In this document: in pieces, positions 1 through 19,189 of the stretch
How the letters are laid out: the number at the start of each line of letters is the position of its first letter
Numbering within the stretch: the stretch's first letter is position 1
DNA from: an uncultured Oscillospiraceae bacterium
GTDB lineage: Bacteria > Bacillota > Clostridia > Oscillospirales > Oscillospiraceae
Length of the DNA: 29,618 bases
Direction: 5' to 3'
NCBI GenBank assembly: GCA_964493585.1
Contig: CAZBOR010000007.1
Coordinates: forward strand, 1-29,618
Notes under the pieces: model-generated
Told to the model about the DNA's origin: nothing
The model's database searches: none
What the model saw: only the letters and a program-made list of their open reading frames with translations
Made by a program: the position numbers and the translations under genes

Positions 1-1454
1 CAGACGCGGAGGAAAAGGGCATCGAGGCGTGTACCGCCTGGCTGGGCCAGGAGCCTGTGATCCTCACCTCGGAGGAGTATCCCTGGTTCGGCGTGGACGA
101 GAATGGCGGTCTCCAGTTCTACCCCAGCGATTATGACTATACCAAATATGAGGACAGCGACGACGACGCCTTTTTTCCGACCATTCTGGACGGGACCCTG
201 GTGACGGGCTTCGGCGAGGACTGCTTTGAGAATGTGTCATGGGACAATACCCCCGTGGACGTGCCGGCCAACTACACCTGGGTGGGGAGCTATGCCTTTG
301 CGGGCTGCGACGGCCTGACCAGAATCAATCTCAGCGCGAATACGACGTCTATTGAGAAAAAAGCGTTCTATAACTGCGACAGCCTCACGGCTGTGGTGAT
401 GCCGGACAGTCTGGAGTATCTGGGCGAGAGCGCCTTTGAAGGCTGCGACTATCTGAATTCCGTGACATTGAACGAGGGCCTTGTGGAGATTGGCGAGTAT
501 GCGTTTTACGACTGCGGAAGTCTGAAAAGCATTACCATTCCCGGCACGGTACAGAATGTGGGGAAGCAGGCATTCTACCAATCCAATCTGGAGAGCCTGA
601 CATTGGAGGAAGGCGTGGGCTATCTGGGCGAAAAATCCTTTTCCAGCTGCGACAGCCTCGTCTCTGTGACGATCCCCTCCACTGCGGAGGTGGGAAATTA
701 TGCCTTTGCGTACTGTGACAATCTGGGGACCGTGGTGCTCACCAGCGGCGTGACGACGATCGACGAGGGCGCGTTCCGGGAATGCCCGCAGCTATGGAAT
801 CTGGGCATCAGCGATACCCTCTCGGTGATCGGCGACTGCGCGTTCTATCAGGACGGAGCGCTCAGCAGCATTTCCCTGCCGGCCACCATCACCTATATCG
901 GGGCCAGCGCCTTTTCCGGGTGCGACGGTATCGGCGAGATCTGGATCGCGGACAACGATGGACTGGTCATCGGGGACGAGGCCTTCTATAGCTGCGACAG
1001 TCTCAGCGGCGCCAGCCTGGGCGTCGGCACCACCAGCCTGGGCGAGAGCGCCTTCGACTGCTGCGGCAGCATGACCTGGGTGACGCTGCCTGAGGGCCTG
1101 ACCTCCATTGGGAACTACTGCTTTGCCGCGGACGCCCTCTATGAGGTGAGTATCCCCAGCACTGTCACCTACATCGGCGAAGGGGCCTTCAAGGAGTGCG
1201 ACTACCTCCAGGGCATTTCGATCCCCGCCGGGGTGTCGATCCTTGAATCCGGGACCTTTGCCTACTGCGACAGCCTCTACTGGGTGTGGTTCAAGGGAGA
1301 AATGAGCATCATCCGGGACGACGCATTCAGCGGCTGCGGCAGCTTTGCCCAGGTGTACTACAGCGGCAGCGCCGATTCCTGGTATGCGGTGAGCACCGGC
1401 AACAACGAGGTGCTGTCCAATGCCCAGTTGATTTCCGATTTCTATGGGAATTGA
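1..1454 (+). CDS. BspA/TpLRR-type leucine-rich repeat surface protein, 5'-truncated at the window edge
   Basis: Reading frame is open from nt 3 with no stop, so the gene starts upstream and GTG at 57 is not the true start. About 20 tandem ~23-aa repeats of pattern (A/E)F.xCxxLxx(V/I)x(I/L)Pxx(V/L)xxIGxx fit the BspA/Treponema LRR family. Stop TGA at 1452-1454. Confidence 0.75.
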   Translation, partial: DAEEKGIEACTAWLGQEPVILTSEEYPWFGVDENGGLQFYPSDYDYTKYEDSDDDAFFPTILDGTLVTGFGEDCFENVSWDNTPVDVPANYTWVGSYAFAGCDGLTRINLSANTTSIEKKAFYNCDSLTAVVMPDSLEYLGESAFEGCDYLNSVTLNEGLVEIGEYAFYDCGSLKSITIPGTVQNVGKQAFYQSNLESLTLEEGVGYLGEKSFSSCDSLVSVTIPSTAEVGNYAFAYCDNLGTVVLTSGVTTIDEGAFRECPQLWNLGISDTLSVIGDCAFYQDGALSSISLPATITYIGASAFSGCDGIGEIWIADNDGLVIGDEAFYSCDSLSGASLGVGTTSLGESAFDCCGSMTWVTLPEGLTSIGNYCFAADALYEVSIPSTVTYIGEGAFKECDYLQGISIPAGVSILESGTFAYCDSLYWVWFKGEMSIIRDDAFSGCGSFAQVYYSGSADSWYAVSTGNNEVLSNAQLISDFYGN

Positions 1455-1467
1455 GAGGAGGAGAATC

Positions 1468-3252
1468 ATGGCAAAGTTTGTGATTGAATGCCCTAGCTGC
1501 CAGAGCTATGTGCGGGTGTCCGGCGGCCTGTTCGCGAAAAAAGCGATCACCTGCCGCTGCGGTCAGGTCATTGATATTCAGGCCAACCGCATGATGAGCC
1601 GGGTATGCCCCCACTGCGGGAACAGCGTGGTCTTTGACGCAGCCAAGGGCGAAAAGGCGAAATGCCCCGTCTGCAAGGAGCTAATCAACACCACTGCGGA
1701 GCAGAGCCATACCGAGGAATTTGTCTGCGCCCAGTGCGGCATCCGGCTCCGGGCGGACAAAAACGCGGCCACCTACCGCTGCCCGGCCTGCGGCGCCGAG
1801 AACGACGTTCAGGCCCAGATTGCAAAGGAGCGCATCTCCCGCCAGGGCGTGGCCAGCATCATCAAGTACGAGGGCGACAACAAGACCTTTATCTGGAAGC
1901 ACCCCGTTGAGGATTTCAACATGGGCTCCCAGCTCATCGTCCATGAGACTCAGGAGGCGGTGTTCTTCCGGGACGGTCAGGCGCTGGACAGCCTGGGACC
2001 GGGACGGCATACCCTGGAGACCCAGTCCCTGCCGATCCTGGAGAAATTCTACAAGCTCCCCACGGATTCCACCAAAACCTTCCATGCCGAAGTCTATTTC
2101 ATCAATCTGACCACCCAGATGGGGATCAAGTGGGGGACCGACTCCAAGGTCCGGGTGAAGGACCCGGTCAACGGCTTCTATGTGGAGCTGGGCGCGGGCG
2201 GCGAGTTCAGCCTGAAGGTCAGCGACCCCAGGCGGCTGCTGCTGAAGCTGGTGGGAACTGGCTCCGGCATTGGCCAGGAGGACCTGCTGAGCACCGGCAC
2301 CGTGGGCGGCGTCAGCCGTCAGACCGGCTATCTGCGGGGCATGATCGTCACCCATATCAAGACCTATCTGGCCCAGACCATCCGCCAGGAGAACATCAAT
2401 ATTCTGGAGATCGACGACAAGCTGCTGGAGCTGAGCCAGGGCATGAAGGCCGTCATCAATCAGGAGCTGCGGGAATACGGCCTGACCATGCCGGACTTCT
2501 TCGTGAACCGCATTGTCACCCCGGATGACGATGAGAACTTCATCCGGCTCAAGCAGCAGTTCGCCCAGGAGGTCCTGGACGTCCGGCAGGAGGCCATCCG
2601 GCAAAGGACCGCCGAGGCCGCCCGCGACCGTATGCGGGTGGAGGCCGAGACCCAGGCGGAGATGCAGATCATCGCCGCCAAGGCGGAGGCCGAGGCCAAG
2701 CGTCAGGCCATTCTGGTGGAGGCGGAGGAAATGCGCCTCAAGGGATACAGCTATCAGCAGGAGACGGCCCGGCAGGTGGGGCTGAACGCCACCGGACAGA
2801 TCGGCGAGGGCGGCGGCTCCGGCGGTCTGGGGGACCTGATGGGTCTGGGCGTGGCCATGGGAGCCATGGGCTCCATCGCCAGCACCACCCGGAACGCGGT
2901 GTCCGGGATGATGGAGCCCGGCAGCGTTCCGGCAGGGAGCTGGACCTGTAGCTGCGGTGCTCAGAACACCGGGAAATTCTGCGCCGAGTGCGGCGCGCCC
3001 AAGCCCCAGACGGCGGAGAGCTGGACCTGTGCCTGCGGCGCGCAGAATACGGGCAAGTTCTGCTCGGAGTGCGGCGCGCCCAAGCCCCAGACAGCGGAGA
3101 GCTGGACCTGTAGCTGCGGGGCCAGAAACACCGGGAAATTCTGCGCCGAGTGCGGTGCGCCGCGCCCGGATGGGACCTGGACCTGCTCCTGCGGGCAGAC
3201 GGGCATCACCGGAAAATTCTGCCCGGAGTGCGGCAAAAAGAAGGGAGAATGA
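1468..3252 (+). CDS. Multi-zinc-ribbon Band-7/SPFH-like protein (Band_7_1/COG4260-like core with a coiled-coil), 594 aa
   Basis: RBS GAGGAGGAG at 1455-1463 is followed by ATG 1468; the track's upstream M at 1444 lies inside the RBS. The N-terminus has three CxxC...CxxC pairs: CPSC/CRCG, CPHCG/CPVC, CAQCG/CPACG. The core IWKHPVEDFNMGSQLIVHETQEAVFFRDGQALDSLGPGRHTLETQSLPIL resembles SPFH 'virion-core-like' proteins. An Ala/Glu/Arg-rich coiled-coil follows, then a Gly-rich linker. The C-terminus has four tandem WTCxCGxxNTGKFCxECGAP repeats. Stop TGA at 3250-3252. Confidence 0.7.
   Translation: MAKFVIECPSCQSYVRVSGGLFAKKAITCRCGQVIDIQANRMMSRVCPHCGNSVVFDAAKGEKAKCPVCKELINTTAEQSHTEEFVCAQCGIRLRADKNAATYRCPACGAENDVQAQIAKERISRQGVASIIKYEGDNKTFIWKHPVEDFNMGSQLIVHETQEAVFFRDGQALDSLGPGRHTLETQSLPILEKFYKLPTDSTKTFHAEVYFINLTTQMGIKWGTDSKVRVKDPVNGFYVELGAGGEFSLKVSDPRRLLLKLVGTGSGIGQEDLLSTGTVGGVSRQTGYLRGMIVTHIKTYLAQTIRQENINILEIDDKLLELSQGMKAVINQELREYGLTMPDFFVNRIVTPDDDENFIRLKQQFAQEVLDVRQEAIRQRTAEAARDRMRVEAETQAEMQIIAAKAEAEAKRQAILVEAEEMRLKGYSYQQETARQVGLNATGQIGEGGGSGGLGDLMGLGVAMGAMGSIASTTRNAVSGMMEPGSVPAGSWTCSCGAQNTGKFCAECGAPKPQTAESWTCACGAQNTGKFCSECGAPKPQTAESWTCSCGARNTGKFCAECGAPRPDGTWTCSCGQTGITGKFCPECGKKKGE
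2938..3237 (+). repeat. In-frame tandem repeat, 81-bp period, about 3.7 copies, encoding C-terminal zinc-ribbon repeats
   Basis: Units begin at 2938, 3019 and 3100 with AGCTGGACCTGT; a degenerate fourth unit starts near 3172. Copies differ mainly at synonymous third positions, e.g. gct cag aac acc ggg aaa versus gcg cag aat acg ggc aag. Confidence 0.85.
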
Positions 3253-3255
3253 GCC

Positions 3256-3921
3256 ATGAAGCAGAAGTATTCTGTATTGGCAGTGGCAGGCATCCTGCTG
3301 GTGCTGTTTTCCTTGATCGTGTTTATCGCGCCGTTCCCCAAGACGGGGGTGTTCTGGCTTTCCTATGTGTTTGCGTTGATCGCCATAGCCGCGCAGCTCC
3401 TGTTTGTGTATGTGGCCTTCTCCGACGGCACATCGGCCCGGAGCCGGTTCTACGGTTTCCCCATTTTCCGCATCGGCATCATCTATCTGGTGGTTCAGCT
3501 TGCGCTGAGCGTGGTGTTTATGCTCCTGGGCAGATGGATTCCCATGTGGATACCGACCCTGTGTGATCTGGTGGTGCTGGGATTGGCGGCCATCGGCCTG
3601 ATCGCGGCGGACAACGTCCGGGACAGCGTCCGCGTGGTGGAGCAGAAGCAGGCGGACAATACCCGCCAGATGCGCGCCCTGCGCCGCACCGCCGATGTGC
3701 TGGCCCAGCGCTATCCGGAGCTTTCCCCGGTGGCCGAGGCGCTGCACCTTGCGGATCCGGTGTCAACGGGGGCCTCGGAGGAGTACGAACGCCACATCTA
3801 TGATCTGCTGCGGGAAATGGAACAATGCCCGGATGAGGCCGGCCGTATTCAGCGGAAGAATCAGGTCCTGGAGGCCATCTCCCAGCGAAATGCCGTCTGC
3901 AAGGCCGGCAAGACAAGATAA
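3256..3921 (+). CDS. Hypothetical membrane protein: four predicted TM helices plus a roughly 100-aa charged alpha-helical C-terminal domain
   Basis: ATG at 3256 lies 3 nt after the upstream stop, with RBS AAGGGAG overlapping that stop, so it is translationally coupled. Hydrophobic segments: AVAGILLVLFSLIVFIA, VFWLSYVFALIAIAAQLLFVYVAF, IFRIGIIYLVVQLALSVVFMLL and LCDLVVLGLAAIGLIAA. Confidence 0.6.
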   Translation: MKQKYSVLAVAGILLVLFSLIVFIAPFPKTGVFWLSYVFALIAIAAQLLFVYVAFSDGTSARSRFYGFPIFRIGIIYLVVQLALSVVFMLLGRWIPMWIPTLCDLVVLGLAAIGLIAADNVRDSVRVVEQKQADNTRQMRALRRTADVLAQRYPELSPVAEALHLADPVSTGASEEYERHIYDLLREMEQCPDEAGRIQRKNQVLEAISQRNAVCKAGKTR

Positions 3922-3925
3922 TTCG

Positions 3926-3977
3926 GCGCCCGGAGCTGTCCCAAATCGGTCAGCTCCGGGCTTTTCACTGTTTTTTT
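3926..3977 (+). terminator. Rho-independent terminator ending the LRR / Zn-ribbon-SPFH / membrane-protein operon
   Basis: GC stem GCGCCCGGAGCTG (3926-3938) pairs with CAGCTCCGGG (3951-3960) across a 12-nt loop. It is followed by CTTTTCACTGTTTTTTT at 3961-3977. Confidence 0.8.
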
Positions 3978-4008
3978 ACGGGTTGTTCATACACTTTTGC
4001 GGATGTTG

Positions 4009-4017
4009 TGCTATAAT
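4009..4017 (+). promoter_or_regulatory. Extended -10 promoter element TGcTATAAT for the LtaS-family gene
   Basis: tgTGcTATAAT at 4007-4017 sits 36 nt upstream of ATG 4053. No good -35 is seen at 17-nt spacing. GGAG at about 4039-4042 serves as RBS. Confidence 0.55.
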
Positions 4018-4052
4018 GACCGGAGAGATTTTTACAATGGAGTGTTTCTTAG

Positions 4053-6191
4053 ATGCAGTATTCACGGCGGTCCGTTCGTATTGGAGCGGTCATATCCTTT
4101 GTGCTGTTCGCTCTGATCGCGGTCCAATACGAGAAATTCCTTGCTGTAGAGGACTGGGGCTGGCTCATGTACGCGGTGAGCCTTGGGGCGGCGCTGCTGG
4201 TCTGGCCGATGCTGGCGGTCCGGTGGACAAGTCCCAGATGGCTCCGCGGCATCTGCATGGTCTGGCTGATGACTGCCGCGCCCCTTATCATGATGATCGC
4301 CGTGGAGCGGCTCAACGGCAATTATATCACCGGCTTTCTGTCCGGGGACGAGGACGTGCTGGCCAACTATGTGGTGTATATGCTGCTGTACCTGCTGGTG
4401 TTTGGACTGAGCGGCAGCCTGCGTATCTCCATCCTGACGGTCAGCCCGGTGGTGCTGCTGTTCGGCATCGCCAATATGTACGTCAAGGAGTTCAAGGGCA
4501 GCCCTCTGGTACCCATGGACCTGGGCAGCATCGCCACGGCGGCCAACGTGGCGGCGGGCTATACCTACGAGATCGGCTATGAGATATTGTTCGCGGTGGC
4601 GCTGACGGCGGCGCTGATGGCGGCGGCCTCCCGGCTCCGCATGAGCCGATGGAAGCTGCCGGCAAAGCTCGTGGTCCGGGCCCTGTGCCTGCTGGTGGTG
4701 GGCGGCTTCGCCTATACCTTCTATTGCACGGACATTGTGGCGGACAACGGGCTCAAGCCGGACTTCTTTAATCAGACCCGCGGCTACAGGAACCACGGCG
4801 CGCTGCTGGAGTTCACGCTGAACACCAAGTACCTCTGGCTGGTGGAGCCCTCCGGCTATGACGCGGACGCGGTGGAGGACATCGTGGCGGAGCAGCTCGC
4901 CGACGGCACGGACAACATTCTGGTCACGGCGCTGGTGCGCCAGGGCATGGACCGGACGGAGGCGGAGGAGTATGTGAATTCCATTCTGACCGCCGGGGAG
5001 CAGGGCGTCACGCCCAATATCATCGTCATCATGAACGAGAGCTTTTCAGACCTGCGGGTGGTGGGGGATATTGAAACGAACATCCCCTATATGCCCTTTA
5101 TCGACAGCCTGGAGGAGAACACGATCCAGGGCAACGTCTATGTGTCCACCATCGGCACCGGCACCAGCAACACGGAGTTTGAGTTCCTGACGGGAAATAC
5201 CATGGCCTTTCTCCCGGCGGGGAGCAACGCCTATCAGCTCTATGTGAAGCAGCAGCAGCCCGGACTGGTGTCCACGCTGCTGCATCAGAACTACACCGCC
5301 GACGCCTTCCATCCCTACTTTGAGAGCAGCTGGAACCGGGTCAGCGTCTACGACCTGATGGGGTTCCGGGATTTCATCACCCTGGAGGACATCGTTGACG
5401 AGGACATCATCGAGCGGTACAAGTCCAGCGGCTACAGCTACAGCCTCTATAAGCGGCTGCTGAAGCAGCGCTATCCCGACGAGGACATCATTCTCCGGCG
5501 GTATGTCAGCGACGAGTATGATTTTCAGAAGGTCATTGAGATGTACGAGAACAAGGACGACCAGCCCTTCTTCCTGTTCAACGTCACCATGCAGTCCCAC
5601 TCCAGCTACGACCAGAAGTTCGACAACTTTGACCAGGAGGTGTATCTGACCTCCACGGAGAAGGAGTACCCCAAGACGGACCAGTACCTGTCCCTCATCA
5701 AGCGCACGGACGACGCCTTTCAGGAGCTGCTGGAATACTTCTCCGAGGTGGAGGAGCCGACCATCATCCTGATGTTTGGGGACCATCAGCCCTTTATCGA
5801 GGACGCCTTCTACAGCGAGGTCATGGGCCAGTCCGTCAGCCAGATGGACGATGAGACCCAGCAAAAGCGCTATATCACCCGGTTCATCCTGTGGGCCAAC
5901 TACGACATCCCGGAGGGCTGGATCGACGAGATCAGCATGAACTATCTGTCCACGCTGCTGCTGCAGGTGGCGGGGCTGGAAATGCCGGACTACAACGCCT
6001 ATCTGGCGGACCTCTATACCCGGATGCCGGTCATTACGGCCCTGGGCTGCCGGGACGCGGAGGGAAACTACTTCCAGGCGGACCAGGCCACAGACCTCCG
6101 GACCCTGGTGCAGAACTACCGCTATGTGGCCTATAACAATCTGGCCGACACGGAAAACCGCAAGGACAGATTGTTCTATTTGGGGGACTGA
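4053..6191 (+). CDS. LTA-synthase (LtaS) family membrane sulfatase-fold transferase
   Basis: An N-terminal polytopic membrane region of about 230 aa precedes an extracytoplasmic alkaline-phosphatase/sulfatase domain. It carries the LtaS-like nucleophile motif STIGTGTSNTEFEFLTGN and the metal-binding motif ILMFGDHQP. Stop TGA at 6189-6191. Confidence 0.7.
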   Translation: MQYSRRSVRIGAVISFVLFALIAVQYEKFLAVEDWGWLMYAVSLGAALLVWPMLAVRWTSPRWLRGICMVWLMTAAPLIMMIAVERLNGNYITGFLSGDEDVLANYVVYMLLYLLVFGLSGSLRISILTVSPVVLLFGIANMYVKEFKGSPLVPMDLGSIATAANVAAGYTYEIGYEILFAVALTAALMAAASRLRMSRWKLPAKLVVRALCLLVVGGFAYTFYCTDIVADNGLKPDFFNQTRGYRNHGALLEFTLNTKYLWLVEPSGYDADAVEDIVAEQLADGTDNILVTALVRQGMDRTEAEEYVNSILTAGEQGVTPNIIVIMNESFSDLRVVGDIETNIPYMPFIDSLEENTIQGNVYVSTIGTGTSNTEFEFLTGNTMAFLPAGSNAYQLYVKQQQPGLVSTLLHQNYTADAFHPYFESSWNRVSVYDLMGFRDFITLEDIVDEDIIERYKSSGYSYSLYKRLLKQRYPDEDIILRRYVSDEYDFQKVIEMYENKDDQPFFLFNVTMQSHSSYDQKFDNFDQEVYLTSTEKEYPKTDQYLSLIKRTDDAFQELLEYFSEVEEPTIILMFGDHQPFIEDAFYSEVMGQSVSQMDDETQQKRYITRFILWANYDIPEGWIDEISMNYLSTLLLQVAGLEMPDYNAYLADLYTRMPVITALGCRDAEGNYFQADQATDLRTLVQNYRYVAYNNLADTENRKDRLFYLGD

Positions 6192-6883
6192 AGCCTGTAG
6201 CTTAAAAGGAGCGCCTTGTCCTCCGGCGTGACCCGGCGGCTCTCCCGGCACTTCTGGATGGCCTTGTTCTGGACCCAGGGGGAGAGGCTCTGCCGCCGGA
6301 GCAGCGCCAGGGTCGGGTCCCGGAATTGTATAAAGCACTCGGACAGGGCCCAGGCCACGGCCATGTTGACATAATATCCGTCGTGGCGGATGCCGCTCAG
6401 GGTGTCCAGCACCCGATCAATGTAGTCCTCCGTGAGAAAATCGTCCATGAGCATGACCACGGCGAACCGCAGCGCAAATTCCTCCCGGCCCCGCAGATAG
6501 GGCTGAAGGAACGCCCAGGTTTCCGGCAGGTGCTTCTTTCCGTCCCGGATGCTGCCGGCAACGCAGTCGCAGATAGCCCAGTTGCGGATCTCCGGCACGA
6601 AGTCCCGGAGCAAATCCAGCCGCCGGGGATAGCCGCAGGGGGCGGTGGCCGTGACCAGGCCGCGGAGCATGGTGATCTCATATACCGGGCTGCCCCTGGC
6701 GGCGGATAAAAAGCTCTGCCAGTCACCCCGGAGCAGCTCTTTGGCGATGCGCCGAAGCTGGGGCATCCGCACCCCGTAGGAGGTGTTTTCCGCGCCGGGG
6801 ATCAGGCCCTCGTTGAAGCGCCGGTATTTCTCGTCGCCCAGGGCCTCCAGCCGCGCCAGCAGCGGCGCAAGTGGATCGGACAT
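6176..6883 (-). CDS. DNA alkylation repair protein (AlkD/AlkC-like HEAT-repeat DNA glycosylase family)
   Basis: ATG is the reverse complement of 6881-6883, giving MSDPLAPLLARLEALGDEKYRRFNEGLIPGAE... with GGAAG upstream. The track ORF extends to 7030 as an unsupported N-terminal extension. The sequence matches the DNA_alkylation family pattern. The 3' end overlaps the LtaS-like gene by 16 bp (6176-6191). Confidence 0.65.
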   Translation of the reverse strand: MSDPLAPLLARLEALGDEKYRRFNEGLIPGAENTSYGVRMPQLRRIAKELLRGDWQSFLSAARGSPVYEITMLRGLVTATAPCGYPRRLDLLRDFVPEIRNWAICDCVAGSIRDGKKHLPETWAFLQPYLRGREEFALRFAVVMLMDDFLTEDYIDRVLDTLSGIRHDGYYVNMAVAWALSECFIQFRDPTLALLRRQSLSPWVQNKAIQKCRESRRVTPEDKALLLSYRLQSPK

Positions 6884-6960
6884 TCCATCACTTCCTTTTC
6901 GGTTGTATGATACATGATACCATAAGCGGCGGCAAAAAACAATGTATGGAGGGTAGCGGC

Positions 6961-7440
6961 ATGAACAAGACCAACGCGATGCGGCTGCTGGACGCGGCCG
7001 GGATCGCCTACAGGGCGGTGGAGTATCCATACGACGAAAACGACCTGGGCGGAATGCACGTGGCGGCGGCCACCGGCATGGACCCGGACCGGATCTTCAA
7101 GACCCTGGTGGCCAGGGGAGAGCGGAAGGGGATACTGGTGTTCTGTATTCCCGTGAGCTGCACCCTGGATCTGAAAAAAGCGGCGATAGCCGCCGGGGAC
7201 AAGAAGGTGGAGATGACCCACATGAAGGAGCTTCTGGGGCTGACGGGCTATATCCGGGGCGGGTGCAGCCCCGTGGGCATGAAGAAGAAGTATCCCACCT
7301 TCATCGAGGAGACGGCGCTGCTCTACGATGAGATCGCCGTGTCCGGCGGAGCGCGGGGACTCCAGGTGCTGCTGGAGCCGGCGGCGCTGCTGGAGTACAC
7401 GGAGGCCGCAGCGGCGGACCTGACGGAGATCCCCCATTGA
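6961..7440 (+). CDS. ybaK: Cys-tRNA(Pro)/Cys-tRNA(Cys) deacylase YbaK
   Basis: RBS GGAGGG at 6947-6952 is followed by ATG 6961. The N-terminus MNKTNAMRLLDAAGIAYRAVEYPYDE is typical of the YbaK/EbsC family, and a GxxGY(I)RGGCSPVG motif is present. The track's 6871 start is an upstream extension overlapping the divergent AlkD start. Confidence 0.75.
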   Translation: MNKTNAMRLLDAAGIAYRAVEYPYDENDLGGMHVAAATGMDPDRIFKTLVARGERKGILVFCIPVSCTLDLKKAAIAAGDKKVEMTHMKELLGLTGYIRGGCSPVGMKKKYPTFIEETALLYDEIAVSGGARGLQVLLEPAALLEYTEAAAADLTEIPH

Positions 7441-7456
7441 TTCCGGCGGAGAAGTG

Positions 7457-7465
7457 TGCTAAAAT
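7457..7465 (+). promoter_or_regulatory. Extended -10 promoter element TGcTAAAAT for the TSCPD gene
   Basis: tgTGcTAAAAT at 7455-7465 lies within the last codons of ybaK, 26 nt upstream of the GTG start. Confidence 0.45.
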
Positions 7466-7490
7466 GAAGCAAAAAAAGGAGGTAAAAACC

Positions 7491-7739
7491 GTGGATTATG
7501 AATACAAGACCAAGGGCGTATGTTCCCGGAAGATCACATTTTCCGTGGAGGATGGCAAGGTGCGGAACGTGGCCTTTGAGGGCGGCTGCAACGGCAACGG
7601 CAAGGGCGTTTCCGCGCTGGTGGATGGAATGGACGTGGACGAGGCCATCTCCCGCATGAAGGGCATCACCTGCGGCATGAAGCCCACCTCATGCCCGGAC
7701 CAGCTTGCCCGGGCGCTGGAGCAGACAAAGGCGCAATAA
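7491..7739 (+). CDS. TSCPD-domain 4-Cys small protein (TIGR03905-like), 82 aa
   Basis: A canonical RBS AAAGGAGGT at 7476-7484 sits 6 nt before GTG 7491. The product MDYEYKTKGVCSRKITFSVEDGKVRNVAFEGGCNGNGKGVSALVDGM...GITCGMKPTSCPDQLARAL carries the family-defining motifs TSCPD and GGCNGN. The track's 7437 start has no RBS. Confidence 0.7.
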   Translation: MDYEYKTKGVCSRKITFSVEDGKVRNVAFEGGCNGNGKGVSALVDGMDVDEAISRMKGITCGMKPTSCPDQLARALEQTKAQ

Positions 7740-7890
7740 GCCTGCTTTTCCATAAAATACTTCGCTTTATGGGAAAACAGTATAAAACAAGGAAATATCG
7801 GGAATCCTCCCTATACCGGGCTTCTGTCAGACGCCGAAAAGCGTTTGACGGCGCGGAAGGCGCCTTGAAGCCTGTATAAGGAGGATTTTT

Positions 7891-8430
7891 ATGGAATTAA
7901 AGGGGTCAAAGACCGAGAGCAACCTGATGGCGGCCTACGCGGCGGAATCCGAGGCCAGGAACAACTACACCTTTTATGCGGGCGTCGCCCGGCGGGACGG
8001 CTACGAGCAGATCGCGGCCATCTTTGAGGAGACGGCCGCCAACGAGAAGGAGCACGCGGAGCTGTGGTACAAATACCTCAACGGCGGCGACTTCTCGGAC
8101 ACCGGGGCAAACCTGGCCGCGGCTGCCCAGGGGGAGCGGTACGAGCATACGGAGATGTATCCCCGGTTTGCCAGGGAGGCCAGGGAGGAGGGCTTCGAGG
8201 AGATCGCCCAGCGCATGGAGCGGGTGGCCCGGGTGGAGCGGGAGCACGAGGAGCGCTACCGGAAGCTGCTCCGGAATGTGGAAAATGGTCTGGTGTTCTC
8301 CAGGGATGGAGACATGGTCTGGCAGTGCCGCAACTGCGGCCACATCCACGTGGGAAAATCCGCGCCGTCGGTGTGTCCCGTGTGCAACCATACGCAGGCG
8401 TACTTCCAGCTCAAGCCGGAAAATATTTGA
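7891..8430 (+). CDS. rbr: Rubrerythrin: ferritin-like diiron domain plus C-terminal rubredoxin-like domain
   Basis: RBS AGGAGG at 7878-7883 is followed by ATG 7891. Diiron ligand motifs E..E.H appear twice ([10 protein letters not shown] / EKEHAELW and ERYEHTEMY / EREHEERY). The C-terminus reads CRNCGHIH...CPVCNH. Stop TGA at 8428-8430. Confidence 0.9.
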
Positions 8431-8433
8431 GGT

Positions 8434-9945
8434 TCATTCCCGCATATAGGCCCTTGCGTCCTTCATAAAGCTCAATATAATCAGGACCAGTACCGCCGCG
8501 ATGGGGAAGGCGGCGACGATGCTCACCGACTGGAGGGCGTTCATGGAGCTTTCCGCAAAGACCAGCGCCATGGGCAGCAGGATCAGCAGGATGCACCACA
8601 TGAGCTGTACCAGCTTGTGCGGCGCGGCCCCATCGCTCAGGGTGTGGTAGCTGTAGCAGGAGGCCGTCAGGGCGATGGAGTCAAAGCTGGTGGCGTAGAA
8701 GGCCACCATGGTCAGCAGCACCAGCGCCAGCACCAGCGGCGCGCAGGGCAGCGTGCTCAGAATGGACACGATGAGGCCGTACAGGTCCCCGGTCTCCTGA
8801 TAGATGCCGAGAAAGTCCGCCCCGCCGGTCATCTGCAGGCCCATGGAGTAATTTCCGAGGATGATGAAGCTCACCACGGTGGACCCGGCCCCGAAGCAGT
8901 AGCCGCCCAGGATGGTCTGCCGCACGGTGCGGCCCTGGGAGATGTTCCCAATGAAAAAGGGCGCGGCCACGCACCAGACCATCCAGTAGGCCCAGTAGTA
9001 GATGGTCCAGTTCTGGGGAAACGAGGTGGTGCGTAGGGGGTCTGTGTAGGTGGACAGCTCCGGGAAGTTTTGCAGCATCCGGCCCAGGGAGGAAAGCCCC
9101 GTTTCGAGGATATACCGGGTCTGCCCGCCCAGCAGCAGCACATAGGCCAGCAGACCGAAGAACAGATAGATGCAGACCTTGGCCAGAATACAGATGCCCC
9201 GGAACCCGTGGAGCAGGGAATAGGTATAGACCACACAGGTGACAGCCAGGATGGCGATCGTCACGGCGGTTCGGTTCAGCTCCGTGTGGAACAGCGCCTC
9301 CAGGAGGCTCGCCATCAGCGGCGTGGCCACGCTGAAGGTGGTGGCGGTGCCTGCCAGCAGCGCAAACACCGCCAGCAGGTCAATGATGCGGCCGGGGATG
9401 CCGTCGGTGTGACGGCCCAGGATGGGACGGCAGGCCTCGGAGTATTTCTGGCGGTCCCGTCCCCGGACGTGGAGCATGAATCCGAAGGCCACGGCCAGCG
9501 TCAGATAGAAGCTCCAGGGGATCAGGCTCCAGTGGAACAGCGGGAACACGCCCGCCCAATCCTGGATGCTGCCCAGCTCCGCCAGGTGCGGGTCGGAGGC
9601 GTACAGGATCCACTCGGACAGGGAGTAGAACAGGATGTCCGCCGCCAGACCGCAGGTGAACATCATGCAGCCCCAGGCGAAGAAGGAATACCTGGGCGTT
9701 TCGTTTTTGCCGCCCAGGACGATGGTTCCGTATTTGGACAGGGCGATATACAGGCTCAGCAGAAAAACGCCAAGGCCGATCACCAGATAGTACCCGCCGA
9801 AGGTATCTCCAAAGAAGAACCGTATCTGGCCCAGGACCTGGGTGCTGCGCTCCGGATAGAGGAGGAACAGCGCGCAGAGGGTCACGATCAGGCCCAGGGG
9901 TACCAGAGTGATAAGCCAGTCGATGCTTCGTGCCGGACGTTTCAT
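8434..9945 (-). CDS. BCCT-family (betaine/carnitine/choline) transporter, likely the choline importer of the lic-like operon
   Basis: ATG is the reverse complement of 9943-9945, preceded by AAGGAGG with 9-nt spacing. The first 7 codons in the track (TTG at 9966) are rejected. Twelve TM helices are predicted, and the BCCT signature WTIYYWAYWMVWCVAAPFFIGNISQGRTVRQ is present. The start overlaps the upstream gene's stop as ATGA. Confidence 0.8.
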   Translation of the reverse strand: MKRPARSIDWLITLVPLGLIVTLCALFLLYPERSTQVLGQIRFFFGDTFGGYYLVIGLGVFLLSLYIALSKYGTIVLGGKNETPRYSFFAWGCMMFTCGLAADILFYSLSEWILYASDPHLAELGSIQDWAGVFPLFHWSLIPWSFYLTLAVAFGFMLHVRGRDRQKYSEACRPILGRHTDGIPGRIIDLLAVFALLAGTATTFSVATPLMASLLEALFHTELNRTAVTIAILAVTCVVYTYSLLHGFRGICILAKVCIYLFFGLLAYVLLLGGQTRYILETGLSSLGRMLQNFPELSTYTDPLRTTSFPQNWTIYYWAYWMVWCVAAPFFIGNISQGRTVRQTILGGYCFGAGSTVVSFIILGNYSMGLQMTGGADFLGIYQETGDLYGLIVSILSTLPCAPLVLALVLLTMVAFYATSFDSIALTASCYSYHTLSDGAAPHKLVQLMWCILLILLPMALVFAESSMNALQSVSIVAAFPIAAVLVLIILSFMKDARAYMRE

Positions 9946-10670
9946 CGGTCCATGCCTCCTTCCCAATCGGAGCGGTAGCTGGGGTCCAGCTCCGCCAGCT
10001 CCCGGAGACTGTCGATCTCCCGGACGGCGTCTGGCGGCATCTCCCGTATGCCCAGGCTGTATTTTTCCGGGTGGCAGAACAGCGGCACGTCGTCCCAGTA
10101 GAGCTGACGGTTTTGCTTCTGCTCAAATTCCAGCTCCAGGTGGGCTCGGAGGCGGCGGCCGTCCTCCGCGTTCCAGCGGGAGATGCTGTAGAGGATATAG
10201 CCGCCGGAGCCGCCGCTGCGGCTGCACGAGGTGATGATCCCGTCCTCAACGGTCAGCAGCCACTCCCCGGTGCTGCCGTCGGTCCGGACGCAGTTGTAGC
10301 CGGAGCGCTCAAATTCCGGCCGGAGCACGGTGTCGTCATAGATGACCTGGTCCCCGTCGAGTATGATGGCGTCCTCCAGATGGGACCGGGCCACATACAG
10401 GGAGGAGATATTGCCGCAGGTCCGGTAGTAGGGATTTTCGATCAGATGGAGGCCGGGATAGGCCCGTTCCAGCGGGGCAAACAGCTCCTTGAGATACCCC
10501 ACCACAACATAGATTTCGTGGATGCCCTGGCGGCGCAGGCCGGTAATGGCCGTTTCGATCATGGGAACGCCGCCCACAGGCACCAGGGGCTTGGGAATGG
10601 TCAGGGTCAGAGGCCGCATACGGAGTCCCAGCCCGGCGGCCATGAGGATCGCACGCTTTACCCGGTACAT
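9942..10670 (-). CDS. LicC-like sugar-phosphate/choline-phosphate nucleotidyl (cytidylyl)transferase, 242 aa
   Basis: ATG is the reverse complement of 10668-10670 with RBS GGGAGGTGA. The N-terminus RAILMAAGLGLRMRPLTLTIPKPLVPV carries the G-x-G-x-R glycine-rich loop of the GlmU/RmlA/LicC nucleotidyltransferase fold. The motif NISSLY and a C-terminal LYWDD segment are present. It overlaps the upstream gene by 13 nt. Confidence 0.7.
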   Translation of the reverse strand: MYRVKRAILMAAGLGLRMRPLTLTIPKPLVPVGGVPMIETAITGLRRQGIHEIYVVVGYLKELFAPLERAYPGLHLIENPYYRTCGNISSLYVARSHLEDAIILDGDQVIYDDTVLRPEFERSGYNCVRTDGSTGEWLLTVEDGIITSCSRSGGSGGYILYSISRWNAEDGRRLRAHLELEFEQKQNRQLYWDDVPLFCHPEKYSLGIREMPPDAVREIDSLRELAELDPSYRSDWEGGMDR

Positions 10671-12442
10671 ATCTCGTCACCTCCCGTGGCGTCCAGCATT
10701 TCCCGGACCAGCTTGTAATAGTCCTTGGCATAGCGGTACTGCCGGAGGGAGTATGCGCCGAACTCCACGCCCAGGGCCCGCTTGTACTCGCACCAGTTGC
10801 TCCAGAGCAGTCCCGCGGCGGCGATGAAGCAGTAGATTTTGATGCGTGTCTCCTTTGCACAGCCATCGGGGAAATACAGCCCGATGAGCCGGTCCACCTG
10901 GTCCCGGCTGTACATGGAATAGATGCAGAACATGGCGATGTCCAGATGCGGGTCCTGCATTCCCGCGTACTCCCAGTCGATGAGGTGCAGCTCCTCCCGG
11001 CCATGGCTGTTTTGGACAAAGAGAAAGTTGTCCGGCACCGCGTCCACATGGGTCAGCACATACGGCTCCGCGTGGGCCTCCACATAGGGACGGAGGGACA
11101 GCACCCGGTCGCGGGTCTGCCGGTAGTCCCGGTAGACCGAGGGCGCGCCATTCCACAGGGATTCATAGAATACGATCTGCCCGAACAGGTCAAAGGTGTG
11201 GTCCACCGTCAGCTTCATCCGGTGAAAGTCCCGGAGCCGCTCCATACATCGGGCGACGTCGTTCCAGTCCCGGCTGTCGCATACCCTGGCGTGGTCCAGA
11301 AACCGCGTGAGCTTATACCCGGAATCCGGGTCCATATAGACCACCGGAGGACAAAGGCCCTTTCCGGCGATGGCGGCGTAGACTGCGGCCTCCTGGCGGC
11401 GGTCTATGAGGCGGTTGGAGCCCTCTCCGGGGATCCGCATGAGATAGCTGCATCCCCGGCAGGTAAAGCGGAAGGAGCGGTTGGTCATGCCCTTTTTCAT
11501 CACCGTGATGTCCGTAAGCTCCTCAGGCCGGACCGTCAGGGCCTGGCAGATCGCGGAGATCGCGTCGGACCGCAGCTGGTTGGATCGGCTGTCCAGGTCC
11601 CGGAGCTGCTCATAGGTGTTGATCTCCACGAAGTCGGAGGCGGAAACCAGCCGGGCGGCGGTCAGCATCCGGCCATTTTGATCGAGGGCCGCCTCCCAGA
11701 AGGCGTCGTTGTACCTGGGGTCCCGGCAGAGCTCCCGGATGCGCTGCCGGACCATCGGGGCGTCCTCCTCCGTCAGATAGCAGATGCCCAGCATGGCGTT
11801 GCCCACGGAGTTCCGGGGGACGGACACAAGCTCCCGTTTCCGATTGACATGGACGGAGCTGCCGGGGTCCATTCGGTCGCTGACCATGTACCAGGAGTAC
11901 AGCTCGTGGCGGCGATAGGGGTTGTCGGCGCACCAGATGTCACAGGGGATGATGTAGCTGTTGGAGAGGTGGTCCAGAGCCAGGGCCAGAGAGTGCAGAT
12001 TGTTTCCGGCGGCATAGTCGGCATTTACGATCAGCTCCACGCCGTATTCGTCGATCAGGTATTCGTAGTGCTCCTTCATAAAGCCCACGACCACATAGAT
12101 TTCGCGGATGCCCGCCGCGTGGAGCTGCCGTATGGTCCGCTCGATGAGCCGCTGGCCATGCACCTCCAGCAGGCCCTTGGGCGTCTCGGTGTTGATGGGG
12201 ACCATCCGCATCCCAAAGCCCGCCGCGAGGATCACGGCGCGTTTCGGGGATAGGGCCTGCGCGGCGCGGACAGCCTTCTCGGTGGGCCGGGCGGAATCGC
12301 CAAGATAGCCCGCCTCCGTCAGCGATTTGAGACAGCGGTTGACCATCCCCAGACTGTGACCGGAGGCTTTGGCCAGGGCGCGCTGGCTCGAAAAGGGCCG
12401 GTCCATCAGCGCGTTCAGAATATCACATTCCTGTATGTTCAT
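10658..12442 (-). CDS. Tri-domain fusion: N-terminal winged-HTH + LicC-like cytidylyltransferase + LicA-like choline/ethanolamine kinase (LicCA-like)
   Basis: ATG is the reverse complement of 12440-12442 with RBS AAGGTGA. Residues 1-50 (ILNALMDRPFSSQRALAKASGHSLGMVNRCLKSLTEAGYL) form a MarR/TrmB-like wHTH. Residues about 70-300 form the nucleotidyltransferase fold, with AVILAAGFGMRMVPINTETPKGLL and NNLHSLA. Residues about 300-594 form the kinase, with the Brenner motif LTHVDAVPDNFLF and the choline-kinase motif IDWEYAGMQDP. Confidence 0.75.
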   Translation of the reverse strand: MNIQECDILNALMDRPFSSQRALAKASGHSLGMVNRCLKSLTEAGYLGDSARPTEKAVRAAQALSPKRAVILAAGFGMRMVPINTETPKGLLEVHGQRLIERTIRQLHAAGIREIYVVVGFMKEHYEYLIDEYGVELIVNADYAAGNNLHSLALALDHLSNSYIIPCDIWCADNPYRRHELYSWYMVSDRMDPGSSVHVNRKRELVSVPRNSVGNAMLGICYLTEEDAPMVRQRIRELCRDPRYNDAFWEAALDQNGRMLTAARLVSASDFVEINTYEQLRDLDSRSNQLRSDAISAICQALTVRPEELTDITVMKKGMTNRSFRFTCRGCSYLMRIPGEGSNRLIDRRQEAAVYAAIAGKGLCPPVVYMDPDSGYKLTRFLDHARVCDSRDWNDVARCMERLRDFHRMKLTVDHTFDLFGQIVFYESLWNGAPSVYRDYRQTRDRVLSLRPYVEAHAEPYVLTHVDAVPDNFLFVQNSHGREELHLIDWEYAGMQDPHLDIAMFCIYSMYSRDQVDRLIGLYFPDGCAKETRIKIYCFIAAAGLLWSNWCEYKRALGVEFGAYSLRQYRYAKDYYKLVREMLDATGGDEICTG

Positions 12443-12471
12443 GTACTTATCACCTTCGCTTATTCGTGAAC

Positions 12472-12489
12472 AATGCGTTCAGACGCATT
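12472..12489 (-). promoter_or_regulatory. Perfect 7-4-7 inverted repeat AATGCGT-TCAG-ACGCATT, candidate operator at the lic-like operon transcription start
   Basis: The palindrome is seen directly in the sequence. It overlaps the -10 hexamer and the predicted +1 of the minus-strand promoter. Confidence 0.6.
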
Positions 12490-12515
12490 ATAGCATATCC
12501 GGGCCGGCGGGTCAA
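12487..12515 (-). promoter_or_regulatory. Sigma-A-type promoter of the licCA-licC-BCCT operon: TTGACC, 17 nt, TGcTATAAT
   Basis: Read on the minus strand, the -35 TTGACC is the reverse complement of 12510-12515. A 17-nt spacer follows. The extended -10 TGCTATAAT is the reverse complement of 12487-12495. The start codon is 38-45 nt downstream. Confidence 0.65.
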
Positions 12516-12623
12516 GACCGGGATCCGGGGAACGACAACGGGCCTGCTTGACACAATTCCGCGCTTCGGCGGGTATGGCGCTGCGGCAACGGAGACTTTT
12601 TTCAAAAAAGTTGTTTTTATGTC

Positions 12624-12652
12624 TTGGATTTCTTGAAATAATCTGATATAAT
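12624..12652 (+). promoter_or_regulatory. tig promoter: TTGGAT, 17 nt, TGaTATAAT
   Basis: -35 at 12624-12629, extended -10 TGATATAAT at 12644-12652. The 5' UTR of about 80 nt contains a GGC-UUCG-GCC tetraloop hairpin at 12706-12715. Confidence 0.5.
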
Positions 12653-12736
12653 CTATAAGCTGTCCCAGAGTGCTTTTACATCTGGAAACCTTATATAAAA
12701 AAGTGGCTTCGGCCGTGAATACAGGAGGAAAAACCA

Positions 12737-14041
12737 ATGAACGTGAAAAGCGTAGAAAAAAACGAAAACAGTACCGCCAAGCTTGTGCTGGAATTTGACA
12801 AGGCCACCTTCCAGACTGCCCTGGATAAGGCTTACCGCCGCGTCCGGAACGACATCTATATCCCCGGCTTCCGCAAGGGCAAGGCGCCCAGGAAGATCGT
12901 GGAGGGGATGTACGGCGCCCAGGTGTTCTATGAGGACGCCATCAACCTGCTGTTCCCCGACGCATGGGAAGAGGCTACCAAGGCGGAGAATCTGAATGTG
13001 GTGGGCAGTCCCAGTATTGCCGACCTGAACGTGGAGGACAGCGGCAATCTGGTGCTCACGGTGGAGGCCGGACTGTATCCTGAGGTCACACTGGGCCAGT
13101 ACAAGGGCATCGAGGCCGAGAAGTCCGCCGTGGAGGTCTCCGAGGAGGAGATTGATGCGGAGGTCCGGAAGCTGGCCGACCGCAATTCCACCGTGGAGAC
13201 GGTGGAGCGTCCTGCGGAAAACGGCGACACCGTGGTGATCGACTACGAGGGCTTTATGAACGACGTTCCCTTTGAGGGCGGCGCGGGCGAGGGCCACAGC
13301 CTGAAGCTCGGCTCCGGCACCTTTATCCCCGGCTTTGAGGACCAGCTGGTGGGCGCGTCCGCCGGCGAGGATCGGGAGGTCAACGTGACCTTCCCGGAGG
13401 ACTACGGCGCGGAGGACCTGGCCGGAAAGCCTGCGGTCTTTAAGGTCAAAGTCAAGGAGGTCAAGGCCACCAACACGCCGGAGCTGGACGATGAGTTCGC
13501 CAAGGACGTGTCCGAGACCGCCGATACCATGGAACAGCTCCGGGACGAGCTGAAGGAGAAGCTGCTGAAGGAAAAGACGGACAGCGCCGAGAGCGCCTTC
13601 AAGGACGCCGTGATGGAAAAGGCGCTGGAGAACATGACGGCTGTGATTCCGGACGCGATGGTGGAGGAGCAGCTTGACAGCACCATGCAGCAGCTCTCCA
13701 TGAGTATGCAGCAGAGCGGCTTCACCCTGGAGCAGTATGCACAGATGATGAGTACCACCGTGCAGGGCATCCGGGACAGCCAGCGGGAATCCGCAGTGAG
13801 CCAGATCAAAAACACGCTGCTGCTGGAGAAGGTGGCCGAGACGGAGAACATCGAGATCACCGACGAGCAGGTGGAGACGGCCTATCAGAAGATGGCGGAG
13901 CAATATGAGATGGAGCTGGAAAAGGTCAAGGAGTATGTGTCGGTGGAGGAGATCCAGCGGGATCAGAAGTTCCAGAAGGCCATGGAGCTGATCGTTGACA
14001 GCGCTGTGGAGAAGGCGCCGGAGGCTCCCGCCGCAGAATAA
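12737..14041 (+). CDS. tig: Trigger factor (ribosome-associated PPIase chaperone)
   Basis: RBS AGGAGG at 12723-12728 is followed by ATG 12737. The 434-aa product has an N-terminal ribosome-binding domain including the GFRKGKAP motif, an FKBP-like middle domain and a C-terminal helical arm. Confidence 0.95.
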   Translation: MNVKSVEKNENSTAKLVLEFDKATFQTALDKAYRRVRNDIYIPGFRKGKAPRKIVEGMYGAQVFYEDAINLLFPDAWEEATKAENLNVVGSPSIADLNVEDSGNLVLTVEAGLYPEVTLGQYKGIEAEKSAVEVSEEEIDAEVRKLADRNSTVETVERPAENGDTVVIDYEGFMNDVPFEGGAGEGHSLKLGSGTFIPGFEDQLVGASAGEDREVNVTFPEDYGAEDLAGKPAVFKVKVKEVKATNTPELDDEFAKDVSETADTMEQLRDELKEKLLKEKTDSAESAFKDAVMEKALENMTAVIPDAMVEEQLDSTMQQLSMSMQQSGFTLEQYAQMMSTTVQGIRDSQRESAVSQIKNTLLLEKVAETENIEITDEQVETAYQKMAEQYEMELEKVKEYVSVEEIQRDQKFQKAMELIVDSAVEKAPEAPAAE

Positions 14042-14118
14042 TTGGGAAAGCGGGAATATTTTTCCGGAGGCGTGGCTACAATTAGCATACTGCGTTTATT
14101 TTACAAGGAGTTGTTACC

Positions 14119-14700: not shown

Positions 14701-14719
14701 CGGAAGGGAGTCATCGCCA

Positions 14720-16000: not shown

Positions 16001-16083
16001 CTGTACTGGGGCTTGCCCGGACCCGTTTGGGCCTGGCCGGCCCCAGCGTGTCTATATTGCCGTTCCAGAAAGGAGCGTTTTCT

Positions 16084-18492: not shown

Positions 18493-18499
18493 GGCGGCC

Positions 18500-19093: not shown

Positions 19094-19100
19094 ATATGGG

Positions 19101-19135
19101 ACCGCCGGAGGACGCCTCCGACGGTCTTTTATTTC
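19101..19135 (+). terminator. Rho-independent terminator after engB
   Basis: Stem GACCGcCGGAGG-ACG-CCTCCGaCGGTC with one bulge, followed by TTTTATTTCTT. Confidence 0.7.
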
Positions 19136-19165: not shown

Positions 19166-19189
19166 GACTATCGGCGGGAGGTGCTGCCA

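Follow-up and report, generated by a model that had tools for sequence, protein, structure and literature searches.

A three-gene operon at the end of the contig

The stretch of DNA analysed here (the window) is 29,618 nucleotides long and spans positions 1 to 29,618, forward strand, of contig CAZBOR010000007.1 (assembly GCA_964493585.1) from an uncultured Oscillospiraceae bacterium. Window positions 1-3977 are the distal two-thirds of a three-gene operon encoding a receptor with a TIR domain and leucine-rich repeats (LRR), a zinc-ribbon protein with an SPFH core of the Band_7_1 type and a membrane protein with four transmembrane (TM) helices (here denoted the 4-TM protein). We describe the gene and domain content of the locus, its topology signals, and the linkage and conservation of its genes. 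The locus is a well-supported member of a conserved TIR-receptor/SPFH/4-TM cassette of gut and rumen Clostridia, and this three-gene cassette is widespread and, apparently, undescribed so far.

Three open reading frames (ORFs) lie on the + strand, at 57(3)-1454, 1468-3252 (594 aa) and 3256-3921 (221 aa). The features of the block, with the evidence for each, are:

1-1454, + strand: 3' part of gene 1, encoding the LRR ectodomain (aa ~632-1114); open frame, LRR_5 match, colinearity with the closest species (L001) and with contig L081
1455-1467, + strand: spacer of 13 nt with the ribosome-binding site GGAGG; sequence read
1468-1827, + strand: three N-terminal Cys4 zinc ribbons (SPFH protein aa 1-120); Cys conservation, DZR and zinc-ribbon matches
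1855-2517, + strand: SPFH (Band_7_1) core (aa ~130-350); PF13421, AlphaFold and Foldseek
2533-2796, + strand: long Ala/Glu/Arg-rich helix (aa 356-443); DSSP, Foldseek alignment
2797-2934, + strand: Gly-rich low-complexity linker with a glycine-zipper-like segment; conservation, predicted local distance difference test (pLDDT) score <50
2935-3252, + strand: four tandem C-terminal zinc ribbons and the stop codon; Cys pattern, alignments
3256-3921, + strand: membrane protein of 221 aa with four TM helices; 3-nt coupling, AlphaFold, linkage
3928-3977, + strand: intrinsic terminator at the operon end; folding energy, shuffles, sequence read

The original prediction, made from the letters of the window, had described an LRR gene, an SPFH gene and a coupled 4-TM gene closed by a terminator. 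The junctions bear this out. The stop codon of the SPFH gene and the start of the 4-TM gene are separated by 3 nt (TGAgccATG), as had been proposed, and the ribosome-binding site expected between the LRR and SPFH genes is present, in a gap of 13 nt rather than 14. An in-frame ATG at 1444, which overlaps the LRR stop codon and would add eight residues to the SPFH protein, was ruled out because all homologues start with MAKFVIEC or MSKFVIEC; the true start is at 1468. A GC-rich 11-bp stem at 3928-3961 and a T-tract that runs to 3977 make up the terminator, which folds with a free energy of -28.8 kcal/mol (z = -5.7), none of 200 shuffled sequences folding equally well. A consensus scan had overlooked it because its loop is longer than 8 nt.

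The 5' boundary was read from L081, a Logan contig of a near-identical strain that differs from window 1-13252 by 51 mismatches (99.6% identity) and extends 3.3 kb upstream. There, full-length gene 1 is preceded by trpA, a terminator hairpin and a promoter-like sequence. With the terminator at 3928-3977 this indicates that the operon comprises exactly three genes, and the receptor, SPFH and 4-TM genes form one transcription-unit-like block. Neither the annotated genes of the window nor the 3.3 kb upstream of it include a PspA-like gene, in agreement with the original prediction, and pspA is absent from the operon itself.

Gene 1 encodes a TIR-TM-LRR receptor truncated by the contig end

The LRR ORF, which matches LRR_5 at 9.5e-155 (Pfam), had been taken for an adhesin-like partner of the SPFH protein. 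Its frame is open to base 3, indicating that it is a gene truncated by the contig end and not a complete stand-alone LRR gene. It is colinear, at 59% identity, with aa 599-1071 of a 1,071-aa TIR-TM-LRR protein of the closest species, L001. In L081 the full gene 1 (L081:1427-4771) encodes 1,114 aa with both TIR_2 and LRR_5, so that the N-terminal two-thirds of the product is encoded beyond the end of our contig and the supposed adhesin is the ectodomain of a receptor with zinc ribbon, TPR, TIR, TM and LRR parts. Along the L081 protein these parts are:

Residues 6-28: zinc ribbon, followed by TPR
Residues ~164-290: TIR domain, containing the sequence SPWVRNEW and followed by a second TPR
Residues ~400-560: coiled coil rich in E, K and A
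Immediately before the TM helix: polybasic stretch KKRVRKRRMKRLRH
Residues ~572-590: single TM helix
After the TM helix to the C-terminus: LRR_5 (BspA-type) ectodomain

The protein is a predicted single-pass type-II receptor, with zinc ribbon, TPR, TIR and coiled coil in the cytoplasm and the BspA-type LRR outside the cell. Between the window and the L081 strain we counted 17 nucleotide differences within the three cassette genes, all of them synonymous.

The SPFH protein carries zinc ribbons at both ends

The 594-aa product of 1468-3252 has the composition that the original prediction had read from it, namely three N-terminal and four C-terminal zinc ribbons around a Band_7_1 core and an Ala/Glu/Arg-rich helix, as seen from the ORFs, the Cys pattern and DSSP. 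Pfam places Band_7_1 (PF13421) at aa 149-360 (2.7e-36, 125.6 bits against a cut-off of 24), with further matches to Band_7 (6.8e-9) and, at aa 81-117, to DZR. In the AlphaFold model (pLDDT 71 overall, ~80-90 in the core) the SPFH core occupies 130-350 and the long helix 356-443, alongside a disordered linker rich in Gly and beads of zinc ribbon. Foldseek matched it to stomatin (9oh9, 4e-9), prohibitin (8rrh), HflK/C (7vhq), flotillin (9bq2) and QmcA (8z5g), with E values from 4e-9 to 6e-6, and also to erlin, indicating that the central domain is truly of the SPFH fold and not an unrelated one. A search of the SPFH profile against PDB sequences gave no match. The long helix (DSSP helices 356-424 and 429-443) aligned over ~300 columns with full-length stomatin, prohibitin and HflK/C chains, and is the coiled-coil 'wall' helix typical of ring-forming SPFH proteins. 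A hydropathy scan detected no TM helix in the protein.

The N-terminal Cys4 ribbons are C8/C11+C29/C31, C47/C50+C66/C69 and C87/C90+C105/C108. The C-terminal ones, C494/496+505/508, C521/523+532/535, C548/550+559/562 and C573/575+585/588, follow the repeat W-x-C-x-CG...KFC-x-x-CG-x-x-K/R-P. Across 75 homologues nearly all ribbon Cys are invariant, including all 12 of the N-terminal ribbons, and the four Cys of the last C-terminal ribbon are kept in at least 90%. Three N-terminal ribbons were present in 78 of 80 species loci, and the C-terminal ribbon count ranges from 2 to 6 among relatives.

Within the Gly-rich linker lies a glycine-zipper-like segment (GLGDLMGLGVAMGAMG / GGLGDLMGLGVAMGAMGSIAS; aa ~452-475, window 2821-2892). 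G455, D456, G459, G461 and G465 are invariant in an alignment of 11 sequences; over 75 sequences G461 and G465 remain invariant and G455 and G459 are kept in at least 90%. The segment has a hydropathy of ~1.3 and is disordered in the AlphaFold model (pLDDT <50). It also occurs in the Band_7_1 proteins of three loci whose SPFH protein has no N-terminal ribbons (L083, L084, L086), and it could be a membrane-dipping or membrane-inserting element.

The downstream gene encodes a four-helix membrane protein of no assigned family

Four TM helices were found in the 221-aa protein by the hydropathy scan and in the AlphaFold model (pLDDT 91.5), as the original prediction had it. Both termini are predicted to lie inside, with TM4 running on into a cytoplasmic helical domain. 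The conserved motifs are an FYGFP loop, DPVS and RN..CK; conserved residues are S63, Y66, G67 and P69 in the cytoplasmic loop and DPVS, R211, N212 and K219 in the tail. The protein matched no family in Pfam, NCBIfam or PADLOC, and NfeD was not among its matches. The family counts 3,943 cluster representatives at E<=1e-3, nearly all of them stand-alone proteins of ~230 aa.

The SPFH and 4-TM genes are linked to a TIR gene across gut and rumen Clostridia

A search of 5.8 billion proteins with the SPFH protein returned more than 7,700 clusters. The best 120 of these all align with 96-100% of the query and are 50-100% identical to it; where a name is given, which is rare, it is 'SPFH domain-containing protein' or stomatin/prohibitin-family membrane protease subunit. 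Full-length relatives were found in 458 species in a scan of one genome per species, the carriers being mostly Oscillospiraceae, Lachnospiraceae, Ruminococcus and Acutalibacteraceae, and Allobaculum too. The fused arrangement, which had been thought unusual, is thus a common one.

Linkage was counted in 80 fetched species loci (L001-L080). In all 78 loci that allow the test, the SPFH gene is followed by a 4-TM gene; the two remaining loci end at a contig edge, and the gaps between the two genes cluster between -8 and +6 nt. Probing with a hidden Markov model of the ~330-aa head formed by zinc ribbon, TPR and TIR detected this head beside the SPFH/4-TM pair, on the same strand, in 73/80 loci, with 1-5 paralogs each. 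The TIR-family gene may stand before, after or between the pair; in four loci (L034, L015, L049, L050) an extra paralog, a zinc ribbon-TPR head with an RCC1 propeller, is inserted between the SPFH and 4-TM genes. The seven loci in which no head was detected are each cut on one side by a contig end near the pair, so the TIR gene may lie beyond.

In the reciprocal direction, four TIR homologues were picked solely for their long contigs, and all four show the order Band_7_1, 4-TM homologue, TIR. Their 4-TM homologues were matched at E 5e-43 and 7e-41, or at ~1e-10 to 1e-11 for shortened forms of 141-142 aa, and one locus has an extra 228-aa gene between the 4-TM and TIR genes. The SPFH proteins of these loci are without the three N-terminal ribbons, and at their ends stand zinc ribbons or a SHOCT domain. 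Band_7_1, 4-TM and zinc ribbon-TPR-TIR therefore make up the core cassette, and the window represents a sub-branch whose SPFH protein gained N-terminal ribbons.

The LRR gene was rejected as the conserved partner of the pair, since an LRR lies upstream of it only in the closest relatives (~5/80 loci) and the TIR head in 73/80. Such a narrow distribution of the LRR, with flanks that are otherwise variable, speaks for a chance neighbourhood of unrelated LRR, SPFH and 4-TM genes. This explanation is nevertheless highly improbable: it is contradicted by the linkage of the 4-TM gene (78/78), of the TIR head (73/80) and in the reciprocal loci (4/4), by gaps of 13 and 3 nt, and by terminators that stand solely at both ends of the block.

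Some further features were seen at these loci. In the branch without N-terminal ribbons (L083-L086) a divergent gene for an HTH_3/XRE-type regulator lies upstream of the Band_7_1 gene. An ORF of ~95 aa, ribbon-helix-helix-like by eye, stands directly upstream of the SPFH gene in 16 loci (L037:5702-5989 and 15 others). The number of C-terminal ribbons correlated with the number of TIR paralogs (rho 0.25, p 0.03); this is confounded by truncated loci and was not used.

The TIR family has a conserved head and variable C-terminal domains

The TIR family was found by clustering the neighbouring ORFs of the species loci, as the third recurrent same-strand family. By Pfam it consists of an N-terminal zinc ribbon, TPR, TIR_2, TPR and a variable C-terminus, TIR_2 scoring 37-44 bits against a cut-off of 28 in eight of nine members scanned. 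It comprises at least 3,395 clusters, whose names go no further than 'TIR domain-containing protein' or 'TPR repeat protein'. A search of PDB sequences with the head yielded nothing beyond TPR matches and marginal matches to the TIRs of TLR15 and the flax L6 resistance protein. Invariant in 38/38 heads are the zinc-ribbon Cys, C103, several TIR core residues, and W237, V238, N240, E241 and W242; the motif W[VILA][KR]NEW is present in 80/91 complete proteins. W237 to E241 form a WxxxE motif, a motif that in AbTir, BtpA, SARM1 and plant TIRs binds NAD+ and contains the catalytic Glu (PMC10641520).

After the head, 36 of 80 complete proteins have one TM helix (32 of these with at least 150 residues beyond it), 10 have two to five and 34 have none, as counted with a crude hydropathy threshold that would miss the TM helix of this organism's own receptor. 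K and R are more frequent before than after the helix in 31/32 single-TM members (median 6 vs 2), predicting an N-in, C-out topology. The C-terminal domains (n=77) are RCC1 propellers in 26, DUF6273 in 9, LRR_5 in 6 and MIT in 2, with Flg_new, ankyrin and TM2 once each; the others are TPR or have no assigned domain, and multi-TM forms occur too. DUF6273 occurs in phage proteins that diversity-generating retroelements diversify (PMC11792537). Among close species, divergence is faster in the ectodomain, the juxtamembrane stretch and the coiled-coil linker than in the TIR head and the SPFH protein: relative to L003, the head is 87% identical, the SPFH protein 80%, the 4-TM protein 66%, the linker 58% and the ectodomain 52%.

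The two MIT matches are to NRBF2_MIT, the best at 5e-7. MIT domains bind proteins of the ESCRT-III family, to which PspA is related; these C-termini form a possible, thin link to membrane remodelling of the Psp type.

The nature of the C-terminal domains also bears on a role in surface display or adhesion, whereby the ectodomains would bind host or fibre, the zinc ribbon-TPR-TIR head would anchor and cluster them on a raft-like SPFH platform and the TIR would be a non-catalytic interaction domain. Surface or binding functions are typical of LRR_5 (BspA-type), RCC1, Flg_new and DUF6273; the nearest NCBIfam models of the LRR part are the adhesins HupY/LrrG and Gli349, far below cut-offs; Ruminococcus loci are flanked by dockerin and cellulase genes, among others; and the zinc ribbon-TPR head is retained in variants without TIR. 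We regard such a complex as rather improbable. The W and E of WxxxE are invariant across the family, a TM helix or ectodomain is absent in many paralogs, and adhesion leaves unexplained the need for a cytoplasmic signalling-type module of ~570 aa with two dedicated partners.

Genomic context and mobility

The cassette is followed in the window by a gene for an LtaS-like sulfatase (4053-6191), a DNA-alkylation repair gene, and genes for YbaK and rubrerythrin. On the opposite strand, 8434-12442 encodes a BCCT transporter, an NTP-transferase and a helix-turn-helix (HTH)/NTP-transferase/choline-kinase protein (LicA/LicC-like); these genes look like a choline uptake and activation cluster for teichoic-acid decoration. 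A housekeeping run of tig, clpP, clpX, lon, engB, an M50 peptidase gene, scpA and scpB occupies 12737-21259, indicating that the cassette here lies in the core chromosome. An ORF of 207 aa after scpB (21256-21879) matched no Pfam family. More distally, the window carries PBP5 and, at 27643-29580, a 645-aa IspH (LytB) fusion with four S1 RNA-binding domains (ispH-rpsA-type).

Across species the flanks are heterogeneous: the 100 immediate neighbours fall into 84 Pfam families, resolvases and integrases included. The PspA family is not among the recurrent flanking families of the 80 loci. Of the reciprocal loci, one adjoins terminase and portal genes and another integrase, WYL and resolvase genes. 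A variant of the cassette is carried by the 20.5-kb plasmid pNP21 of Butyrivibrio fibrisolvens D1 (L087; 6700-10053), next to a restriction-modification S subunit, a recombinase and a YoeB/RelB toxin-antitoxin pair. It encodes an SPFH protein with zinc ribbons, a 4-TM homologue (with an annotated start that is apparently too late) and a 464-aa protein with a zinc ribbon-TPR head and coiled coil. The heterogeneous flanks, with scattered matches to defence genes, lead us to regard the cassette as an autonomous accessory unit for which enrichment in defence islands is not demonstrable.

The envelope-acting genes that follow the operon in the window, the LtaS-like sulfatase and the choline cluster, are among the observations that speak for a PspA-independent envelope-stress or microdomain module. 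In such a module the SPFH protein, tethered by the 4-TM protein, would stabilise or survey the membrane, and the TIR-LRR receptor would be an accessory envelope sensor. The original prediction had compared the locus with ydjG and ydjI of Bacillus subtilis. YdjI, a soluble protein of the Band-7 type with a zinc ribbon at its C-terminus, needs the membrane proteins YdjG/YdjH and recruits PspA (PMC8581546, PMC11237479, bioRxiv 10.64898/2026.02.06.704340); YdjG combines an NTF2-like domain and a TM segment with two zinc ribbons, and a TPM domain characterises YdjH (PMC11237479). Our SPFH protein resembles YdjI in combining Band_7_1 with C-terminal ribbons without a TM helix (PMC11237479), and YdjI, dependent on membrane partners, takes part in stress signalling beyond PspA (PMC8581546; bioRxiv 10.64898/2026.02.06.704340). 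The MIT domain in 2/77 C-termini, with its connection to PspA, points the same way.

The YdjG/YdjH half of the comparison did not hold up. No NTF2-like domain or TM segment follows the N-terminal ribbons, no YdjG-type gene is present in the operon, and a TPM-domain membrane protein of the YdjH type was not detected in it. With PspA, TPM and NTF2-like parts all absent, the locus is YdjI-like only in its SPFH and zinc-ribbon core, and their absence argues against an envelope-stress module. The envelope-gene neighbours are not conserved across loci, and some copies are carried by a small plasmid or adjoin genes of mobile elements. Moreover, envelope repair does not predict a linked TIR partner with an invariant catalytic-type motif, nor paralog arrays with swapped domains. 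An envelope-stress function is a possibility, though an unlikely one, and not the best-supported reading of the locus.

A putative surface-sensing TIR signalling module

The reading that we put forward, with belief and doubt in about equal measure, is that the cassette is a membrane TIR signalling module of Toll-like-receptor-like topology, scaffolded by the SPFH protein and acting as a surface-sensing conflict or defence system. What the sequences show is the gene and domain content, the topology signals, the linkage and the conservation; the protein contacts, TIR catalysis, ligand and physiological output we infer. The 4-TM protein would dock the soluble SPFH protein under the membrane, as YdjG/YdjH do for YdjI in B. 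subtilis, and the SPFH oligomer would, via its zinc ribbons, organise or corral the zinc ribbon-TPR heads of one or several TIR receptors. A ligand on the variable outer domain (here LRR; elsewhere RCC1, DUF6273 and others), or a perturbation of the membrane, might then alter receptor clustering. TIR-TIR assembly could lead to NAD+ cleavage or to production of a nucleotide signal, giving an outside-in response, most likely in conflict or defence against phage or other surface attack. Four observations make us favour defence: a TIR motif of catalytic type, arrays of paralogs whose binding domains are swapped, a genomic location that varies, and copies on plasmid and mobile DNA.

Several observations weigh against this reading. 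In the window the operon sits between trpA and housekeeping and envelope genes, not in a defence island. Among the 100 immediate neighbours we found single SspH, LmuA, ZorD and Avs1a matches and generic HTH and ATPase families, too weak for enrichment in defence islands. PADLOC gave no defence-system match for the SPFH protein, the 4-TM protein or five TIR-family proteins (two weak matches to TPR and SMC-like coiled coils), and no homologue of the TIR head was present in 50,697 phage records. The comparison of the window with the L081 strain showed no hypervariability of the ectodomain. About 40% of TIR paralogs have no predicted TM helix or ectodomain in the crude hydropathy scan, so sensing outside the cell is not the whole story. 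The third component also exists without TIR, as in the 464-aa protein of pNP21 and in the inserted paralog L034:5007-6515, which has no Pfam TIR match; a TIR domain can act purely as an interaction domain. Housekeeping context, lack of island enrichment, TM-less paralogs and TIR-less variants thus weaken the case for defence.

The further idea that gut Clostridia possess bacterial 'Toll-like' receptors, single-pass proteins with swappable outer domains (LRR, RCC1 propeller, DUF6273 of the retroelement-diversified type), a catalytic TIR and outside-in signalling from a 4-TM-anchored, flotillin-like SPFH scaffold, is tentative and meets more doubt than belief. Known bacterial TIR systems sense intracellular events; a TIR receptor with an outer domain would, if true, let bacteria detect threats or partners at their surface. 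The Band_7_1 SPFH proteins, still poorly understood, would thereby acquire a concrete client, and the receptors would make up a new class of surface-sensing immune or conflict system, an independent prokaryotic receptor-TIR-raft logic akin to that of animal innate immunity. Human, rumen and caecal Clostridia carry the cassette in abundance, with thousands of protein clusters and at least 458 species. Since carriers have been cultured (Allobaculum stercoricanis DSM 13633, Ruminococcus sp. FC2018 and Butyrivibrio fibrisolvens D1 with pNP21), the hypothesis is directly testable. Even if the role is in envelope homeostasis or adhesion, the 4-TM family, the zinc ribbon-TPR-TIR head and the multi-zinc-ribbon SPFH family, all three large and unannotated, share a common context.

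Comparison with known systems

Searches of the literature (SPFH with TIR, Band_7_1, TIR with DUF6273, SPFH with anti-phage) returned, within the searchable library, no description of the cassette and no link between TIR and SPFH. PADLOC, NCBIfam and PHROGs matched no system for the three proteins and gave only generic zinc-ribbon matches, a weak PHROG 'lipoprotein' match (coiled coil) and LRR PHROGs. Among described systems, the B. subtilis PspA-YdjG/YdjH/YdjI system (SamGHI) shares with the cassette a Band_7_1 protein without TM helix, C-terminal ribbon(s), a stretch of low complexity and a neighbouring gene for a membrane protein that could tether it. The cassette differs in having no pspA, no TPM-domain YdjH and no YdjG with NTF2-like and TM parts, its membrane partner being the unrelated 4-TM protein. 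Its SPFH protein bears additional ribbons, three at the N-terminus and several at the C-terminus, and the TIR partner is obligatory.

HflK/C-FtsH, QmcA-YbbJ/NfeD, stomatin and flotillin resemble the cassette in the SPFH core with a long helix and in a small membrane-protein partner encoded in the operon. Unlike in these ring and cage complexes, the SPFH protein of the cassette is devoid of TM helices and hairpins, and neither an NfeD nor a protease serves as its partner.

Metazoan Toll-like receptors (TLRs) are single-pass proteins with an extracellular LRR and a cytoplasmic TIR, as is predicted for the receptor described here, and TLR signalling depends on clustering in SPFH/flotillin-rich membrane domains. 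The receptor of the cassette has the inverse polarity, with an N-terminal TIR (type II); its LRR belongs to the BspA LRR_5 type, its zinc ribbon-TPR head and coiled coil have no counterpart in TLRs, and adaptors of the MyD88 type are missing. The likeness, confined to the shared domains, is treated as an analogy, a convergence in architecture and not family membership.

Thoeris (ThsB/ThsA) and other TIR defence systems have in common with the cassette a TIR with WxxxE, arrays of paralogs, some copies on mobile DNA and a membrane protein encoded alongside, which could serve as effector. No protein of the ThsA or ThsB type was matched, however. Unlike in those systems, the TIR of the cassette belongs to a membrane receptor that also has an outer domain, and an SPFH protein is its invariant partner.

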